Source: Tubiluchus corallicola (taxonomy: Eukaryota; Animalia; Priapulida). Taken from it: a stretch of DNA of 10,980 nucleotides. Shown here piece after piece: positions 2 to 10,980 of this stretch. A program made the translations under genes and the position numbers. The first letter of the stretch is position 1. The number at the start of each line of letters is the position of its first letter. The notes under the pieces were generated by a model. That model worked only from the letters and a program-made list of their open reading frames with translations. It ran no database searches and was not told the DNA's origin. Where the stretch lies: NCBI GenBank assembly GCA_030141605.1, contig JAQGDQ010001017.1, positions 59,081 through 70,060 on the forward strand, given 5' to 3'.

Positions 2-441
2 TGTTTGTCAAATTTAGTATAGCTATAAGTTACAAGTGGCGACACCTGGCCTCAATAGTCGCTTCCTACAGAGTTTCCGGTCATTTAGGTTTCAAGGTGT
101 ACATGTGGTGACGTAGCTGTGTGAACTCATGATTAATGCCAACGATGTACGTAAATTTTATTTAGTCATTTATTTTATTTTGTTGTAAGCTTCTCATTAA
201 TTTAATCATATTCGATGTTTTGGTAAAAATGAATCAGTTTATTAAAGAAATTTATATATTATTTCAGATAAAATGTAATATTTTGGGATGAAGCAAATAT
301 GACTACGGGGCATGTGCCATGAAAATAGTACAAACAATAAACAGTTACACTGAGCGAATGATGACTTTGTTTGTTTGTCTCCGTAAAGCCCAAGCAATTT
401 TATATCGGCATTCGACAATCCAGAGTGGACATTTTTATACA
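2..441 (+). repeat. Putative 5' LTR of the outer element
   Basis: Starts TGT (2-4), has AATAAA at 336-341 followed by a GT-rich tract (~366-380), and ends ...TTTATACA at 441, 118 nt before the gag ATG. Its size is similar to the inner LTR. The second copy is not in the window, so boundaries are unverified (ACA at 431 or 448 are alternative ends). Confidence 0.5.
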
Positions 442-559: not shown

Positions 560-3550
560 ATGATGTCGGACCAAACAACAAGGGAGAAATTAAAAAATAC
601 TACCCGTGATCAGCTGCGAGAAATGCTGCGGGCCAAACAACTGTCAGTTTCTGGTAGTAAAGAAGAGCTAATTCACAGACTCTTAGCAAGTCAGCAGAAA
701 CCAGATCATTCATATAATGTAACGTCATGTGAAGCGTCTGGTACGTCGTCGTATGCTGACGCAGCTACAGCGACAGCGCAGCATCAAGTTGGCGAGCGCA
801 GCCCTTCCAAAGCATCTTCAGGTGCTAGTCATTTGAAATCTACGAGACGGTCGAAGAAAAGTGCCAGGGAAGTAAAGTTGCATGAGATTAAGATTCAGGA
901 ACAGGAGCTGAAATTAAAAGCAATGAAGTTAAAACAGTTAAGACTTGAGAGTGAAGTTACTTCACATAGCAGTGCAACCAGTCAGAAGTCGCGTACAACC
1001 ATCACCTCGCCTGAAATCAAGGACGAGACTTTAGCTAGGAAACCCATGTCAACCAAGGACAAGGTTACCGATTGGCTTCAAGGAGTGCGTGACGTCACCA
1101 AAGCCCAGTCATCAGACACCAAGCCTGCAGTTCATCATACGTCTATGGAGGCCTATCTCACCATGGCAATGAACGACAGTTATGCTAAGGGAGCTCTTGT
1201 CTTGGCACACAGTTTGCGTCGAACTGGTACAACTCGACATCTAGCAATTTTGGTCACCCATACTGTTTCTAGCAGAGTTATGGCAGAGCTTAGTAATGTT
1301 TTTGATTATGTACAAATGATTGATTTATTAAAGAGTAGTGATTTTGATAACTTGCATTTGCTAGGTAGGCCAGAGCTAAATGTAACATTCTCGAAATTGC
1401 ACTGCTGGGCTATGACTCAGTTTACAAAGTGCGTTTACTTAGATGCTGATACTTTAGTATTAGATAATATTGATGAGTTATTCAATTATGATGAGCTTGC
1501 GGCTGCCCCAGATGTGGGGTGGCCTGATTGTTTTAATTCTGGAATGTTTGTATTTCAGCCTAATTTGGAAACTTACAGTAGATTGTTGTCACTATCACAA
1601 ACTGAGGCCTGTTCATTCGATGGCGGTGATCAGGGTTTATTAAATTTAGCCTTTCCGAACTGGAGTTCACAGTTTGACAAGCGCCTACCTTTTGTGTATA
1701 ATGCTGCCGTCCAAGGTCGTTACGGTTACCTTCCTGCAATGAAGCAGTTCAGTAGCAAGATTAAAGTTGCGCACTTTTTAGGCCGAAAGAAGCCCTGGGA
1801 TTATACTGAATATGTAAACGTCAATTTTTCGGATGACTATGAATCAGGTTTTCTTCGTAGATGGTGGAATATCTATTTATCTGATGTACAGCCCTTCTTC
1901 GAAAATTCTTCCAGTGAAGGTTTAGAACCTAGCGTTAAACAAACTACGCCGTTCTTCCATGCCGCATTTAAATCACCCCAGGTAGAACAAACTTTAAATA
2001 TTTCTGCACGTGACTTCGTCCCAGGGAATACGCAACTTCCGCTTCCGGCTACATCGCCTCAGGCTTCTTGTGGTAACGGGATACAAAATAATTCTAGGAA
2101 TTTCTCCGGTAGGGCTAGTCAGAATGACATGAACGTTTTTATGGACCTCATGTTAGAAGGCCAAAGACAACACTTAAATATGTACAATGCTATGCAGCTT
2201 CCACACGTGCAGCTTGAAACGTTTGATGGTGACGTAATGAAGTTCTGGAGCTTTATCAAGCGTTTCGAAGCCAGCGTGGAGAACTATACCCAAGATGATG
2301 CAGCGAGGTACACTAGGTTAGCCCAACTCTGCATTGGTAAAGCTAAAAGAGTTGTTGACAGTTGTAATTATATGGACCCCCGTTTTGCATATGGGCATGC
2401 TAAACAGCTTTTAACCGAAAGATTCGGCTCGCCATTTGTTGTCACACAGGCCTGGCTTTCCAGAATTGCTGAATTTGAGCCCATAAAGATAAATGAGCCG
2501 GGAAAGTTACAGGAATTTTCTGATTTGATTGTGGCTTGTGTGGAAACTTTGAAAATAATGAACAACGTTTGCGAAATTAGTACTCAATGCAGTTTGCTAC
2601 AAATAATTAAAAAACTCCCATTCAAGTTCCAGGATAGGTGGAAGGATGTTGTAGCCAGGCTTCTGAAATATGAGCACAGGAATCCGACGATATTTGATGT
2701 AGTCGAATTCATTAAGGACGCAGCTGACAAAATTAATCATCCGGTCTTTGGCGACATTAACGTTAGCCTGTCTACTAGGAGCCCAAAAGGTAGACGCGAC
2801 ACCAAAGCCAGGAATTTCGCCAGCTCAGCGCAGGAAACTGCATCAATTACGAAATGCAACAGTGAACGACAACCCGGAAATACAACCGGAAGTGGTGGCA
2901 AAATGGCTTCTCAACGCCTAGAGATGCCTTGTTTTCTATGTAACTCTACGGAACACCGTTCACTCAGGCTATGCAATAAATTTAAGTCAATGAATGATAC
3001 TGATAGATTGAAAACCGCCAGAAGAGAAGGTCTTTGCTTCAATTGTTTGATTAAAGGAAAGCACAGGGCTGCTCGATGCTTCAAAGCAGGATGCGACGTA
3101 GAAGGATGCAGACGTAAGCATTCAAATTTACTGCATGCTGCCTTGGAGAAAATGTCACCTTCTAAAAACAATGATGGAAGCAAGAAGGAAAAAGCGCCAA
3201 CACATTGTAAACCAGAAGCTTCTAGCAGTTGTGCTAGTATTAAGGAAGGCGGCAAAGCGGCTCTCCCTGTTGTCTCAGTTTTGGTTGAAGTTGATGGGAA
3301 GATGCCCGTGCGTACTTTAGCCCTACTTGACCCTGGCTCGACTAACACTTTTTGTACAAAGGCATTGTTCGACAAACTTGGGGCTACTGGACAAAAACGA
3401 ACGCTCTCTTTAACCACTATAGAAGAGAAATATTCCAAGATAAACACTTTAATCACGAAGATGTCTGTTACTGGGGTAAACACTGGCAATAAAATAGCTT
3501 TGCCTCATGTCTTCGTTAGGCCTGCATTGTTACTGGAAAAGGACTGCTAG
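560..3550 (+). CDS. gag: Gag-protease polyprotein of the outer element: SAP - glycogenin - capsid-like (DUF1759-type) - 3 Zn knuckles - N-terminal part of aspartic protease
   Basis: 996-aa uninterrupted ORF. Knuckles CFLCNSTEHRSLRLC, CFNCLIKGKHRAARC and CDVEGCRRKHSNLLH lie at 2930-3136. Protease Asp in LLDPGS is at 3329-3331. Confidence 0.92.
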   Translation: MMSDQTTREKLKNTTRDQLREMLRAKQLSVSGSKEELIHRLLASQQKPDHSYNVTSCEASGTSSYADAATATAQHQVGERSPSKASSGASHLKSTRRSKKSAREVKLHEIKIQEQELKLKAMKLKQLRLESEVTSHSSATSQKSRTTITSPEIKDETLARKPMSTKDKVTDWLQGVRDVTKAQSSDTKPAVHHTSMEAYLTMAMNDSYAKGALVLAHSLRRTGTTRHLAILVTHTVSSRVMAELSNVFDYVQMIDLLKSSDFDNLHLLGRPELNVTFSKLHCWAMTQFTKCVYLDADTLVLDNIDELFNYDELAAAPDVGWPDCFNSGMFVFQPNLETYSRLLSLSQTEACSFDGGDQGLLNLAFPNWSSQFDKRLPFVYNAAVQGRYGYLPAMKQFSSKIKVAHFLGRKKPWDYTEYVNVNFSDDYESGFLRRWWNIYLSDVQPFFENSSSEGLEPSVKQTTPFFHAAFKSPQVEQTLNISARDFVPGNTQLPLPATSPQASCGNGIQNNSRNFSGRASQNDMNVFMDLMLEGQRQHLNMYNAMQLPHVQLETFDGDVMKFWSFIKRFEASVENYTQDDAARYTRLAQLCIGKAKRVVDSCNYMDPRFAYGHAKQLLTERFGSPFVVTQAWLSRIAEFEPIKINEPGKLQEFSDLIVACVETLKIMNNVCEISTQCSLLQIIKKLPFKFQDRWKDVVARLLKYEHRNPTIFDVVEFIKDAADKINHPVFGDINVSLSTRSPKGRRDTKARNFASSAQETASITKCNSERQPGNTTGSGGKMASQRLEMPCFLCNSTEHRSLRLCNKFKSMNDTDRLKTARREGLCFNCLIKGKHRAARCFKAGCDVEGCRRKHSNLLHAALEKMSPSKNNDGSKKEKAPTHCKPEASSSCASIKEGGKAALPVVSVLVEVDGKMPVRTLALLDPGSTNTFCTKALFDKLGATGQKRTLSLTTIEEKYSKINTLITKMSVTGVNTGNKIALPHVFVRPALLLEKDC
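587..688 (+). other. SAP DNA-binding domain at the Gag N-terminus
   Basis: KLKNTTRDQLREMLRAKQLSVSGSKEELIHRLL fits the SAP pattern L..L...L..RGL...G.K..LI.RL. Confidence 0.85.
1145..1894 (+). other. Glycogenin catalytic domain (GT8), aa 196-445 of the Gag ORF
   Basis: Glycogenin signature motifs are colinear: NDSYAKGALVL, RPELNVTFSKLHCW, YLDADTLV (DxD 1442-1450), AAPDVGWPDCFNSG, SFDGGDQGLLN, LPFVYN, YGYLPA (acceptor Tyr 1721-1723), HFLGRKKPW, WWNIY. No introns. Confidence 0.96.
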
Positions 3551-4098
3551 GCCTTTAGCAAGGATGTAGAACAATGGCCGCATTTGCAAGGACTTCCCCT
3601 ATCGTTCACAGATACAGAAGACCTAACTGAACTGGGACTTTTGATCGGCCAGGATGTTCCTGATGCGCTGATTCCTCTTGAGGTACGAACAGGTCCTAGA
3701 CTAACGCCATATGCTGTGAAGACAAAGCTAGGCTGGACCCTTAATGGACCCATAGGAGGCGGCGTTCCTAATTTAGGGCGCATTTGTAGTAATTTAACCC
3801 AAGCCAATGCATTGTCATATGGAGAAACCAATTCCTTGCAGCAGCAAATAGAACAATTCTGGAAAATTGAAACTAGCGAGTCTGACAGACAATTCTCTAG
3901 AGACGATATGCGTGCTCTCGATATATGGGAGGCTTCAGTCACAAAAACACATGGGCATTACCAGTTGGACATCCCATTTAAATCTGAGAACGATGTTTTA
4001 CCAGATACGCTACAAATGGCTTCATCTAGATTGGAAAGTCTACGTAAACGGCTGCAGAGGAACCCAGAATTGCACAACCGATACACTATAGCTATGAA
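3551..4098 (+). pseudogene. pol: In-frame continuation of the outer pol (C-terminal protease and pre-RT region), after a TAG and truncated by insertion
   Basis: Same frame as 560..3550 (DC*AFSKDVEQWPHLQGLPL...LGLLIGQDVPDALIP...TKLGWTLNGP). The last residues of ORF 3584..4132 (VLSSLSACML) come from the inserted LTR. Confidence 0.88.
4094..4098. repeat. Probable 5-bp target site duplication ATGAA (left copy)
   Basis: The 5 bp left of the LTR are ATGAA. The two visible bases right of the other LTR (10979-10980) are AT, consistent with the start of the duplicate. Confidence 0.6.
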
Positions 4099-4561
4099 TG
4101 TTTTGTCCAGTTTGTCTGCCTGCATGTTGTAACCAAATAAAAATGATGAACACTTTGATACAGGTTGATTCCTTTATTGTAAAAAAAATGAAGCAGTGAA
4201 GCTGGTGTAGAGGGGGGTAGGTTTCAACATAAATTGCAGTCTTGACAAACTACATTATGAAACTCACCAATTACACTATTCACCAGCAGACTATGAGACC
4301 TGAACTACTACTGACCAACATACAATAGCCAGGACTCCTGTTACAGCTCATTAACTTTAGTTGAAACCCAGTAAATGGTATGTAAATAGATTGTACAGTA
4401 AACAGTTTAAGAGACAGGTAAATTAATTTTACAGCCAAAGGATGGCAGCACCTCCCCAAGATACTACAAGTTTCTGTTAATTCCAAGTCTAAAAAAAGCA
4501 TTCATTATGACACAACTGTATAACAAAAAATATATTATCAAATTGTTTCCTAAACAATACA
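4099..4561 (-). repeat. 3' LTR of the inner element (463 bp)
   Basis: Direct repeat of 10515-10978 with TGT...ACA termini. AATAAA on the - strand at 4173-4178. Confidence 0.97.
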
Positions 4562-4566
4562 CCCCC
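4562..4566 (-). promoter_or_regulatory. Short polypurine tract (GGGGG) abutting the 3' LTR
   Basis: The - strand reads TTTTTTTTTCATCTTGGGGG|TGTATTG. Confidence 0.65.
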
Positions 4567-4593
4567 AAGATGAAAAAAAAACGCGGTGCTCCT

Positions 4594-7500
4594 TTAAATC
4601 TCCCAACCATCTGCAGGAACAAGAACAACCAACCGCTGAACTGGCCGTCTTACCCTTGTATATGTCGCACCACCATAGTTCCTAGCATCCTCATCTGGTT
4701 TGATGTTTTTGTATTTGACGATGCAATGACGAACATTTCCATCTGATCCAGGAAACACCTCATCCACCATTGCCAAGCGATACTCTCCTCGCAGAGTATT
4801 GGTGTCAGCAACAAACACAACATCTCCTACTTGAATGTTCCGCTCTCTATGATGCCACTTCTGACGAACTACCATGGCTGGTGCACAGTCTCTGCTCCAC
4901 CTGCGCCAAAACGTGTCGACAATTGCCTGAATTACTCTAAAGCGATCTCTGTACGATGCCTTGTAGTTCCACGGACCTGGAGGTATGTTCACAGAGCTGC
5001 GACCAAGCAACATATCATTCGGTGTCAAAGCCTTGAAATGCTTCTCCTCTGAAATATGTACATGAAGAGGTCGCTGGTTTATTAGCTGCATCACCTCGTA
5101 AAGGACAGTTTGTAACTCGGAATAGCTCATGAGTGCACATCCTACTGCCAGTGAAATCGCCCTTTTTGCCGTATGAATCAACTTCTCTGTTGTCCCCTGC
5201 CACCATGGAGCATGTGCAGGGCTAAACTCCCAAGCAAATCCATTTGAAGCACTGAATGTGGACACATCTTTTCCTGCTAGCTGAAGATGCATTTCCAACA
5301 ATTCTTTGCCTGCTGCTCTCAGCTGCGACCCACCATCACTGAACATCTTTGTTGGCCAGCCTCTGATTGCACCAAACCGACGGAGACATGAAAGAAAGCT
5401 GCCAGTGGAGTAACTGTTCGCAAGTTCTATGTGGACAGCCTTTGTTATTAAACACACGAACAGAACTCCATATGCTTTCCCAGCTGATCTCTTATTGACC
5501 TCTCCTCTTACCCTAAATGGGCCAAACAAATCAACTCCTGTATTTGTCCAAGGTGGAGCTGGCTTAAGCTTTTCTTCTGGAAGAGGGCCCATTAGCTGTT
5601 TCGCTGCTCTGACATCAACACGTCTACAAGTAGTACATCTGTGCTTGACACTTTTGGCCAATTGCGTTCCACGAGGAACCCAGTACTTCCTGCGAAACTT
5701 TTCCAGAGTTGCAGCCACCCCAAGATGCCCTTGAGAATGAGCTTCGTCCATGAAAAGTCGTGTCAATGGATGTCCATATGGCAAAATAATAGGTAGCTGG
5801 TTGTCCCACGTGAAAATGACATAACACTGCATTCTACTGCCAACCACCCAAAATCCGTCACTGTTCTTCGTTGGTGCTAACCTTGTAAATCTACCAGTGG
5901 GTTTACCATCTTTATCTGGTGCCGATTTCTCTAACTCTTCCTCAACTGTGTCCTGAGCTTCTTTGATGACACGTCTCCTGGCTGCCTCCAACATCTCAGC
6001 TGTTACCATTACTGAACCACTGGAAAAATGGCGTTTCCCATCACCACACGGTTTCACTATTTGCAACACTCTTGCGACTGAACGAAGTAGCCTATTAACT
6101 TTGCTAAACCGAGATACATCAAATACTGACTCGTTCTCCTTGACAGAAACTAGTCCAACTGCTGCGATATCTGATAGTTCATCCTCACTGACTGAAGCAG
6201 GTGATACAGGCCATTCACTCCTTGGTAAACTCAGAAAATGTGGTCCATTTACCCATTCATCACTTGCTAAATCTGATGGCTTCTTTCCACGTGTCACCCA
6301 GTCTGCAATATTATGAGATCCATCGATCCACATCCACTCATCAAGTTTCCCGTCTTCTGAAAGTTTAGATGCAGATTGTATTTCTCCAACACGCACTCCC
6401 ACATAGCGATCGAATCTACTGCTTGTTTTTTGTAGCATCCCCAAAACTGTTTTCGAGTCAATGAGATGCAAAACCTCTGTGAAATTGTACCGCATTTCAC
6501 TTTCAATGAATTTCCTTATTCGTTTGCCCACTAGCGCACCATTTAGTTCAAGTCTTGGAATCGTGATGTGCTTCAGCGGAGCAATTTTACCCTTTGCCAT
6601 TATAAGCTGACTCTTACTACCTCCATCAGTTAATTCCCAATGAGCATAGGCGACAGCACCAAATCCTGTCTCACTAGCATCTGAAAGTATGATCAGCATC
6701 GGATCACCAACAGTTTCTCTTGGCTGCAAGCATCTTGGGAATGATAAACTCTGAACATCATAGAGTTCTTGAAAAAATTCAAAAAACTTCTCCCGCAGAT
6801 CCAATGGCAATGCATCATCCCAGCCAAGTTTCTTAACCCAAGTTTCCCTTAGCAGTATCTTACTCTTCATGGTGACTGGAGTAAGAAAGCCACATGGGTC
6901 AAACAGTGACATGACTTGGCTCATGACCATCCGTCTTGTCAAAATTGGTGGCATTTCTCTGGCTAACTCCTCGCGACATATGTCTGTACCTGTTCGTACT
7001 TTCCTCCTCCGTCTTGAGAAATTGATCTTTGCATGAAATTTGAATTTGTCCACCACTGAGTCCCACACAACTCCCAACACTCGACCTTCCTCTTCTGAAT
7101 TTGCAATCACTTTAACCGGAGAATTTTCTTCTGTAGTTGCTTCACGAGAAAAACGCCAACACTTCACTTTAAAATTCCCTCTTTTCAAAATATCTTCCAC
7201 CTCCTTTGCTAGTCCGAGGCCCCTTTCTCTTCCTTCACAAGACTCTAGAATATCATCAACATATGTTGACTCTTTTATGACCTTTGCTGCCTGAGGATGT
7301 GAGCTTTGGAACATTTCAGCAGTCATATACAATGCTTCAGTGGCAATCGCTCCCGCCGGACGGTCGCCAATATTTACAACAGTAATGATGTATACATCTG
7401 GTGCCCTATTTTCATCACAATCCCGCCAAAGAAATCTGTGACAGTGCTGATCATTGACATCCATTTCAACTGAGTTGTACATCTTCCGAATGTCCCCTTG

Positions 7501-10479
7501 AATAGCAAAAGAGTGCTCTCGAAACCTGCAAAACACGCCAAGCAAATTATTAAGGTAATTGTCTGGTCCTTTAGCCAAACATGAATTAAGTGAAATGTTA
7601 CCCTTGGCTTTTCTACTGCTGTTGAAAACAATTCGCACGGGTGTTGACTGGCTCTTAGGGTTAAGCGCAGCCAAGTGGCATAAATAGAAAACTGGCCCTT
7701 TCCAGTTATCAATCTCGGCTTGACTAAGTTTGCGTGCAGCACCTCGATCGACCATGTCTTGTATCTGACCTGAATACACAGCACCCCATTCTGTATTTAT
7801 TGCCAAACTTGTCTCACACGACTGTAAAGCTGACAGAGCTTGTTGATAGTTATCAGGCAACTGTGATCTGTCCACTATCCAAGGATACTTTGAAATCCAG
7901 ACTTGGCGATCTAGATCGTAGCTGAGTCCTTCACGGATCAAGCGTAGCTCACTTTCTTCCCGGAAACTGTAGGTATGCCCGGGTATAGGGCACTTACCAC
8001 ACCGACATGCCCCACATTTCGGCACAATCTGAGTTCCGAGTGCTTCAGCTGCAAAGAAGGTGTCACAGTTATCTTCTGTACCAACTGAAAATGATGACAT
8101 AGAATCACCCGACTGCTTTATCACTAGGCACTCCTGTGGATTGAGCTGTGGATGACTTAAAACTTCAGTACTGAAATTAGAGACCTTTGCATGAAAAATA
8201 GCTTCTTTCCAGCATCCATTTGCCTTTCTGGTAGTGTCAAATAGCTCTGGATGAGATCCACCCAAACACCTACCAAACATATTTTCCATAATGAAAAGAT
8301 GAGCGCCATCTGATCTGATTGGTTGAGGTTGCCATCCAGCTTTAAAATTGCCAAGTAAAAGCTCCACTGTGCCACTCGGACGCTTAAGGTCCCCAACTGA
8401 AATCCCTGGAAAAATACGCTTCACCACTGTCATGTCAACTGGAGAAATGCTTCCAGTTATTGAATCCAGGCCGTATGCCAAAAAGGTATGACGTTGATTA
8501 TCTTTATCCACTATCGTGACGTTATACACCTGAGTTTCCAAAGTTTCGACATGTCCCTGCAAAGTTTTAACATCAATTATCTCACTTTTTCCAGGGAACT
8601 TATTCTGCTTTGCACAGTCATGTGTTATAAACATTCCAGAACTTCCTGAATCAAAGAAAGCATTGATTTTACTGCCCCGTCTTGGTCCTTGAATCTCCAT
8701 TATATGAAGTAATGTTGTTGAATCAGTACCAGCACTATCCGTCACTGTAGCTGATGTAACCTTCTTAGCATCCACACAATTTGAAATAGTTGTTGAATCA
8801 ACCACTTCAACATTTGATTTTGAAACACTACCAGGCCCAGATTGCATCTCTTTGGAGCAGAGCATTGTATGGTGACCTCCATTCTGACACTTCTTGCACT
8901 TTGCTGTGCCCTTGCATACTACTGCCACATGATTTCCAAAGCAGATATAACAAGCACCATGCCTCTTTATTACATCTCGTCTTTGATTAACAGTCATATT
9001 TTTGAACTTCTCACAATCCCTGTTTAAATGGTCATTTACTTCGCATGTGCTGCACTTGAAGTAAGGTCTTTTGTCACCCATCCTCCCGTTTGCTTTACAT
9101 TCACGAGCAAAATGTCCTTGTTTGCCACATTTGAAACAGCTTTTTAACTTAGCACCGCCACCAGTCCCAAAGGCTTCGGGTTGAATGTCCTGATAATGGC
9201 TACTGACACTGCCAAACTGCTTTCGTACACCTGCAGTTAAATACTCTACGCGCTCCTTTTCCATTAACAAAAATGGTAAAAGAAGCTTGAAAGGTTCCAG
9301 TCTCTCCTCATCACTCTTGCTGATGATGTGCCTTGCCCATTCATTACGAATATCTTCCGGTAACCTGCGTTCAATTTCAGCTAGTGCCCCCACATTGCTA
9401 ATTTCCTGCAACATACCTAGTGACTTTAGTTTTGTACTGGCTTTTTCTATCCTGTCGACAAACTTTATGAAACCAACATGGTTGCCAGAAGATAAAGGCT
9501 TGACATCTCTGATTTCTGCCATGATGCTTTCAGTGTCTTTCTTTCTATCTCCATATTTTCTTTCAAGGCGTTTAATCATTTCAGCGTAGTTGTCATTACA
9601 GGCAGCTACTAGATCCGCCGCCTCTCCACTTAGTTTCTCATTCAAGATGGCAGCTCAAAATTCACTGGAATAATGTTTTTCGACAATCCTCCTCCAATTT
9701 GTGATGAACGTCGGCCATTCACTGTAGCCACCACGAAAACCGGGAATTGGTATTGCTTCCAATTTTGCTCTACCAGATGCTTGCTCATTTCCAGTGTTGT
9801 TTGACATGCCAGATGCATGATTGTTTTGCAATGATTGAGAACCAATATAGTTCATTGCTTTGTCATTTATCTCTTTAACAATTGTCTCTACGTCATTGAA
9901 TCTTCTATCCTCTTCCTGATAGTCAGCAAGCAAGGAAGCATATTTGGTGAATGATAACCTCACTTTTTCCAACAATGTCTGAATTTCTAACCGACAACTC
10001 TCCAGAACCTGAATTGCTGTATCTCCGCTCTCAAGCCTCTTTTCCTGATTTTCAATATGTCCATGCAATAAATGAATCAGTGTATCAAAATCTATTTTGT
10101 GCCACCTGATGATTTTTTCCTCTTCCTTCGTTGCTTTAGCTTCATCATCCTTCTCTTTCTTGAGTTCTTCAACTCGCCTGATTCTCCGCTTGTAGTCCTT
10201 AACTGATGCAAAAACGTTGTCTGCTCTTGAATATTCTTGCTCCATGTATTGAGAAGCCTTGTCTTCATCCACATTCTGCTGTTCTTGTTTGCATGCATTA
10301 AAGAATTCAATGTGGCATGCTTCCAAATGATTGAGTGCAGCCTCCACAGCATCCACCAGCCGATTAATTTCTTGCACACTGTCTTCCTCTTCAATTAAAT
10401 TTTGAAGCCTTCTCAGTACCCTTGTCAAAGCTGACTTTGCAACAGTTCTCCTCGTCTTTTTCTCCGAAGCTGACATCAT
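4594..10479 (-). pseudogene. gag-pol: Single gag-pol polyprotein frame of the inner element (5886 nt) with one in-frame TGA at 9655-9657
   Basis: ORFs 9655..10479 and 4594..9645 are in the same frame: HYSSEF*AAILNEKLSGEA. Domains are coiled coil, capsid-like (KLEAIPIPGFRGGYSEWPTF), 4 Zn knuckles, protease DSG (8644-8652), RT YVDD (7252-7263), RNase H DAS (Asp 6679-6681), and integrase HHCC plus D (5530-5532), D (5335-5337), E (5185-5187). Confidence 0.93.
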
Positions 10480-10500
10480 TAATTCCTATTGAAAGTGCTG

Positions 10501-10514
10501 AATTTATGTTGAAA
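10501..10514 (-). promoter_or_regulatory. Primer-binding-site position; complementary to the element's own LTR rather than a tRNA 3' end
   Basis: The - strand reads TTTCAACATAAATT directly after the LTR end, with no TGG. It is a perfect inverted repeat of 10639-10652. Confidence 0.7.
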
Positions 10515-10978
10515 TGTTTTGTCCAGTTTGTCTGCCTGCATGTTGTAACCAAATAAAAATGATGAACACTTTGATACAGGTTGATTCCTTTATTGTCAAA
10601 AAAAATGAAGCAGTGAAGCTGGTGTAGAGGGGGGTAGGTTTCAACATAAATTGCAGTCTTGACAAACTACATTATGAAATTCACCAATTACACTATTCAC
10701 CAGCAGACTATGAGACCTGAACTACTACTGACCAACATACAATAGCCAGGACTCCTGTTACAGCTCATTAACTTTAGTTGAAACCCAGTAAATGGTATGT
10801 AAATAGATTGTACAGTAAACAGTTTAAGAGACAGGTAAATAAATTTTACAGCCAAATGATGGCAGCACCTCCCCAAGATACTACAAGTTTCTGTTAATTC
10901 CAAGTCTAAAAAAAGCATTCATTATGACACAACTGTATAACAAAAAATATATTATCAAATTGTTTCCTAAACAATACA
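10515..10978 (-). repeat. 5' LTR of the inner element (464 bp)
   Basis: Matches 4099-4561 except for 3 substitutions and 1 single-base indel by manual alignment. AATAAA on the - strand at 10589-10594. Confidence 0.97.
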
Positions 10979-10980
10979 AT

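Follow-up and report, generated by a model that had tools for sequence, protein, structure and literature searches.

A BEL/Pao element of Tubiluchus corallicola whose primer binding site complements its own LTR: a candidate for self-primed reverse transcription

Two nested BEL/Pao elements

The stretch of DNA analysed here (the window, 10,980 nucleotides of the priapulid Tubiluchus corallicola) consists of two nested BEL/Pao elements, the inner one on the minus strand and the outer one on the plus strand (Table 1). The inner element is bounded by a pair of TG...CA long terminal repeats (LTRs) and a short target-site duplication, of whose right copy two of five nucleotides are visible, and its two LTRs show 4 differences in 464 nt of the LTR-LTR alignment; the insertion is therefore young. 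Downstream of an in-frame stop, the remainder of gag-pol forms one frame of 1686 amino acids. A domain search found the Pao-type domain order with Peptidase_A17 (E 6e-45), DUF5641, DUF1759 and Integrase_H2C2, and protein homologues of the element (120 among the matches listed) carry the same domains. The catalytic motifs of reverse transcriptase (RT), RNase H and integrase are present, among them four acidic RNase H motifs, and the RNase H may be able to cut an RNA duplex. On account of its Pao-type proteins, the inner element is filed as BEL/Pao despite departing from the priming described in the ICTV profile of the Belpaoviridae. The same profile gives a polypurine tract (PPT) of about 10 nt before the 3' LTR (PMC8742986); in the inner element, only five G adjoin the 3' LTR. 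The G-rich tract at 4562-4571 has internal near-copies in both LTRs, at 10868-10879 and 4451-4462 (repeat family D9).

The gag frame of the outer element (560-3550, plus strand) contains a weak SAP match and, in frame ahead of DUF1759, a glycogenin-like GT8 domain at about amino acids 200-416, which shares 41-50% identity with 13 GT8 matches, several of them named glycogenin. Contigs from three runs extend over and bridge portions of this frame, which suggests that GT8 is a family trait of the outer-element gag; among the 14 matches of the longer size class, none combines GT8 with DUF1759. The outer element is broken by a stop at 3548-3550, which follows the protease motif, and by the inner insertion at 4098/4099, and its RT lies outside the window.

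Table 1. Positions of the inner element, its predicted priming signals and associated features in the window.
Feature	Position	Strand	Remarks
5' LTR, inner element	10515..10978	-	464 nt; TG...CA on the sense strand; from two-LTR alignment and sibling-contig flanks
3' LTR, inner element	4099..4561	-	463 nt; own copy of the 14-mer at 4222-4235
Target-site duplication ATGAA	4094..4098	+	right copy: AT at 10979-10980, then end of window (2 of 5 nt visible)
gag, N-terminal part	9658..10479	-	ATG 35 nt past the 5' LTR; followed by in-frame stop 9655-9657
Rest of gag-pol	4594..9654	-	DUF1759, zf-CCHC, protease, RT, Peptidase_A17 (RNase H region), integrase, DUF5641
G-rich tract, putative PPT	4562..4570	-	short; adjoins 3' LTR
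Non-tRNA primer binding site (PBS)	10501..10514	-	adjoins LTR; without TGG
Predicted self-primer	10639..10652	-	LTR nt 327-340; predicted cut after 10639, 124 nt before LTR end
AATAAA	10589..10594	-	single occurrence in the LTR; predicted cut lies 44 nt upstream; presumed role in the repeat (R)
AG with sibling-contig breaks from both sides	10658..10659	-	likely intron site in other copies, absent here
PBS-like stretch in LTR	10773..10783	-	competes for the 14-mer in folds with longer leaders

Complementarity between the PBS and the LTR

The first 14 nt past the 5' LTR (sense 10514-10501) are exactly complementary to a 14-mer within the LTR (sense 10652-10639), and both a repeat search and the LTR comparison bear out the perfect inverted repeat described in an earlier note on this DNA. 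Pairing sets in immediately after the terminal CA of the LTR, and the first 8 nt of the PBS contain no TGG, in line with the earlier claim that a TGG-type PBS is missing. Pairing had also been said to stop at the LTR boundary; sibling contigs (7 in X1, 9 in X2 and 3 in X4) depart from the window at 10515 and continue into unrelated sequence, which together with the LTR alignment confirms the edge at 10514/10515. AATAAA starts 58 nt past the first base of the 14-mer, the distance given earlier as approximate, and a primer placed at the poly(A) site does not fit, as the match ends 44 nt before AATAAA. Neither tRNA nor Rfam matches were found within the window. A match of at least 14 nt was obtained in 1 of 20,000 dinucleotide shuffles of the LTR with offsets of 0-3 allowed. 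The duplex is A/U-rich (-12.7 kcal/mol), and the 14-nt helix is found in both the minimum-energy and the centroid fold; the stability of the 191-nt region as a whole is not unusual (z -0.72). About three further pairs behind a bulge, proposed in the earlier note, are present in the fold; in the internal contigs of X1 and X2, a variant at 10498 disrupts one of them. Within 10501-10514, the internal contigs of X1, X2 and X3 are all unchanged. In the LTR 14-mer, none of 40 variant rows (40 of 90 rows) falls inside, with about one expected, a number too small to demonstrate conservation of this arm among sibling copies.

A profile scan of metagenome contigs yielded 79 loci related to the inner element, 38 of which were excluded with a 5' end that was apparently missing or rearranged, as judged from the ORF table or by eye; no relatives were found in the viral contigs or genome contigs searched. 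The 5' end was scanned in the other 41 loci: 26 gave 20 entries having both a PBS and the upstream LTR region, nine gave the PBS only and six were unresolved (L001, L006, L048, L052, L055 and L056). RT/RNase H identity to the window element is 39-53% where measured. Each entry was scored by the longest perfect complement to its PBS from the first base onwards, either contiguous or split as exon-GT...AG-exon, with GT[AG] as the only donor requirement in the spliced search. The score was reached in at most 6 of 400 shuffles by 20 of the 21 entries (window and 20 relatives), that is, 19 of the 20 relatives pass. L021 does not pass: its perfect match of 3 nt was reached by 397 of 400 shuffles, and by eye the sequence differs inside the match from its passing sister L009; in L038, one mismatch shortens the match from 14 to 10 nt. 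The relatives are not independent entries, as sister families are among them.

Complementarity is retained while the letters change, which is the co-variation between PBS and LTR that the earlier note had proposed to look for. The PBS starts with TTTCAAC in the window and with GTAAAAC, GTACCAA, GTGACAA, TTCGAAA, TTCCAAA, TTTTCGA or GTTGATA in relatives, and TGG is missing from the first 8 nt in all 21 entries and in the nine further PBS-only loci. Compared with the best of 20 foreign LTRs, the own LTR of an entry wins in 13 cases, ties in 6 and loses in 2, with the ties partly due to the similar sites of sister families. Two-LTR repeats or homology defined the LTR ends of 8 entries, a motif judged by eye those of 6 and the score those of 7, which brings a caveat of circularity; each of the six ends placed by eye was top or tied top in a blind scan. 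Under a null model that takes the selection into account (150 shuffles), the match was reached 0 times for L041, L046, L050 and L062 and twice for L074, and the results for L051 (6/150) and L075 (9/150) are weak. Furthermore, in 14 of 21 entries the stretch from the predicted cut to the LTR end contains A(A/T)TAAA, versus 2 of 21 upstream control stretches, some of which were truncated; a signal in this position is needed to leave a terminal repeat.

Predicted LTR introns, a probable leader and the proposed primer

Six relatives resemble the window element in having a contiguous match, of 9-14 nt in these seven, and in 13 of the 20 relatives the best match (10-15 nt) runs across a predicted GT..AG intron of 77-371 nt in the LTR. 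In the latter, the match would therefore exist only in spliced RNA, something that neither a host tRNA nor a DNA hairpin readily explains. Ten of the 13 spliced matches have a strong donor (GTAAGT, GTGAGT, GTATGT or GTAAGA); in L051, L062 and L074 a weak donor adds 2-3 nt, and of the two splice sites only the acceptor, where the match starts, is convincing. In L002 (1-467 versus 7120-7791), one LTR copy is without exactly a 205-nt GTGAGT..TTTTAG piece; such a precise loss would fit splicing followed by reverse transcription, of an upstream intron and not of the primer joint. On the tree, contiguous forms are mixed with spliced ones: L009 shares a supported clade with the spliced L007 and L016, and the spliced L041 groups with the contiguous L046. 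In L046, L050, L054 and L058, an acceptor-like TTTCAG or TTTTAG lies upstream of the contiguous match in the first 40-90 nt of the short LTRs, and a strong donor inside the LTR was not seen; judged by their sequence, these sites are possibly trans-splice acceptors.

The outer element of the window may also have a splice-built primer. Its best candidate for a CA|PBS junction, at 396|397, gives an 11-nt match across a GTACGT..TTTCAG intron (147-267 and 397-407, plus strand), which is reached by 10 of 500 selection-aware shuffles, with an LTR end that is not independently fixed. As a separate observation on the relatives, 6-11 C are found in the 15 nt before the called start of the 3' LTR, in place of a polypurine tract, in 12 of 24 sequences (L002, L004, L008, L009, L024, L027-L030 and L038-L040); the start was mis-called in about five others of the 24, and the window element is G-rich at this position.

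The one RNA run compared with the window matched it with a single piece of 153 nt. The sibling contigs of the inner element also bear on the 5' end of its transcript. LTR contigs are interrupted at 10658/10659, 5 nt upstream of the 14-mer, where their end looks like a splice acceptor: the loose letters that accompany the downstream side (sense) form a pyrimidine tract ending in AG in four X2 contigs and one X3 contig, another X3 contig is without AG at this point, and one X2 contig bridges it without an insert, as the window does. The simplest reading of these sequences is an intron present in some copies and absent here, with the donor side deduced; a trans-splice acceptor or another kind of insertion is possible. 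An acceptor-like insertion at this distance makes it likely that the primer lies behind a short leader. In RNA folding, the helix has a probability of 0.78-1.0 for transcripts starting at 10652-10664 in all three 3' contexts tried, is mostly kept for starts up to 10700 and is lost for many starts at 10724-10808, the loss being partly due to the PBS-like stretch in the LTR. This loss argues against a long leader, and the folding model favours transcripts whose 5' end lies no more than about 50 nt from the 14-mer. A short leader thus fits both the sibling break and the folding.

Self-priming of the inner element, taken over all its forms, is highly probable on the DNA sequence, from which the whole argument is drawn. 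In the form that we consider rather probable, the element would prime with the RNA of its own LTR 14-mer, without a tRNA-type site and probably behind a short leader. Transcription would start in the LTR upstream of 10652, and 10652-10639 would fold onto the PBS, closing a loop of 124 nt. The RNA would be cut after 10639, presumably by the RNase H of the element as in Tf1, and the resulting 3' end would face the CA of the LTR and serve RT in copying U5 and R back to the cut. One cut would suffice even with the 5' leader kept on the primer, and the repeat for strand transfer would run from this cut as far as the poly(A) site, comprising the 44 nt up to AATAAA and whatever separates that signal from the poly(A) site. 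Plus-strand synthesis would then copy the primer and rewrite the PBS in every cycle, and perfect matches even to exon-exon joints would be accounted for in this way. Splicing of an LTR intron would assemble the primer in many relatives, and the window element would represent the contiguous form.

Among the alternatives, a strict Tf1 geometry places the transcript start at 10652-10656, so that the 14-mer would be the 5' end of the RNA and one cut would free the primer. Tf1 itself uses its own first 11 bases (PMC7175516), the match in the window is contiguous, and the helix is most robust in silico for starts at 10652-10664. The start at 10652-10656 predicted in the earlier note is nevertheless unlikely. 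YYANWYY and TCAKT are initiator patterns, and the GC|AATTT context at the 14-mer, which had been called initiator-like, matches neither of them; there is no TATA-like box near 10652-10656, and the sibling contigs break upstream of the 14-mer. In addition, 13 of the 20 relatives need the upstream exon for their best match, which makes a start at the 14-mer doubtful. The proposal of Tf1-like self-priming is supported in so far as relatives keep PBS-LTR complementarity without TGG, and its transcript start is the part in doubt.

Alternatively, the pairing might be a conserved RNA structure that acts in packaging, dimerisation or translational control, while priming would fall to a host RNA, for instance a fragment from inside a tRNA. 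Precedents for both parts have been described: Copia elements use half-tRNA and internal-tRNA primers (PMC6317226, PMC5445492), and fungal GalEa elements have a conserved hairpin replacing the PBS (PMC5445492). However, the PBS letters vary widely across families and yet track the own LTR from the first base, so that a host primer would have to co-vary with them, and the pairing with exon-exon joints would be left unexplained; this explanation is quite improbable. A self-derived primer might also come from the 3' LTR copy of the genomic RNA, where the 14-mer likewise lies upstream of AATAAA (4222-4235), or in trans from short transcripts of solo LTRs, and LTR contigs do join many different flanks. 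A cut in the 3' copy, however, would deprive strand transfer of its repeat, and a spliced 3' template would presumably erase the intron that most spliced-type relatives keep, which makes this source very unlikely. Chance, or a functionless one-off relic of a template switch, is extremely improbable: both arms are A/T-rich and the variant rows do not demonstrate conservation of the LTR arm, but the PBS arm is unchanged in internal contigs, the shuffles hardly ever give such a match, and its recurrence in 19 of 20 relatives has largely refuted this reading.

Beyond the inner element itself, a broader scenario is plausible, although it is held tentatively. An old and broad animal branch of BEL/Pao might have dropped tRNA priming in favour of a primer built by the spliceosome, with the intron spliced out of the 5' copy to create the primer but retained in the 3' copy, which it would shield from the cut. 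Lineages such as that of the window element would then have switched to a ready-made primer when the intron was lost or shifted. The very distant outer element might do the same, and many relatives would also be without a purine tract for plus-strand priming.

Relation to known priming systems

The best-described case of self-priming is Tf1, in which the RNA's first 11 bases pair with the PBS and the cut made by RNase H falls between bases 11 and 12 (PMC7175516); Tj1 of S. japonicus and Tf2 behave like Tf1 (PMC4600332, PMC5341516). The window element shares with Tf1/Tf2 of S. pombe and Tj1, all Ty3/gypsy elements, a PBS that adjoins the LTR, complements RNA of the own LTR and is no tRNA site. 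In its way of working the feature is like Tf1 self-priming, but the element is not a Tf1/sushi element: Tf1/sushi belongs to Ty3/gypsy, whereas the window element has Peptidase_A17, DUF1759 and DUF5641 and no chromodomain match. The pairing comprises 11 nt in Tf1 and 14 nt here, and the Tf1 primer consists of the first bases of the RNA, whereas that of the window element probably lies behind a leader and that of many relatives spans a predicted intron. Furthermore, self-priming of Tf1 has been proven by experiment, whereas that of the window element is read from its letters. Self-priming outside Tf1 proper has likewise been predicted from sequence for the plant elements Tcn1 (gypsy) and TAR/Houba/Osr-1 (copia); these belong to other superfamilies and hosts, and a splice-built primer is not mentioned in the available part of the source (PMC6317226). 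The GalEa copia elements of fungi, with their Conserved Hairpin Site, also have conserved pairing in place of a tRNA PBS, but their hairpin is local and no complement was found in U5 (PMC5445492), whereas the partner lies 51-333 nt inside the LTR in the elements described here.

In animals, BEL/Pao ranks second in abundance among LTR groups (PMC3118150), and its replication is poorly understood (PMC8742986). The window element agrees with the ICTV profile of the Belpaoviridae in its LTRs, the order gag-PR-RT-RH-IN, its size and its organisation as a single ORF. The profile, however, describes tRNA priming from an 18-nt PBS complementary to tRNA-Arg or tRNA-Gly (PMC8742986), whereas the window element and 29 related entries are without a TGG site. 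A literature search found neither self-priming nor a splice-built primer for BEL/Pao; most subscription papers, supplements, Repbase and GyDB lay outside its scope, and an older mention is possible. In the main text of two BEL/Pao surveys (PMC3118150, PMC6238403) neither 'PBS' nor 'primer' occurs, and the available portions of PMC3601003, PMC5445492, PMC3286476 and PMC8220671 contain no case of self-priming in BEL/Pao.

The proposed mechanism makes exact predictions, namely the sequence of the primer, the cut after 10639 and the splice joints. If true, self-priming would be found in a third superfamily, and it would explain why PBS finders miss such elements. It would presumably also free the element from silencing by tRNA fragments, and a primer that lies inside the RNA, splice-built in relatives, would couple the initiation of reverse transcription with RNA processing.
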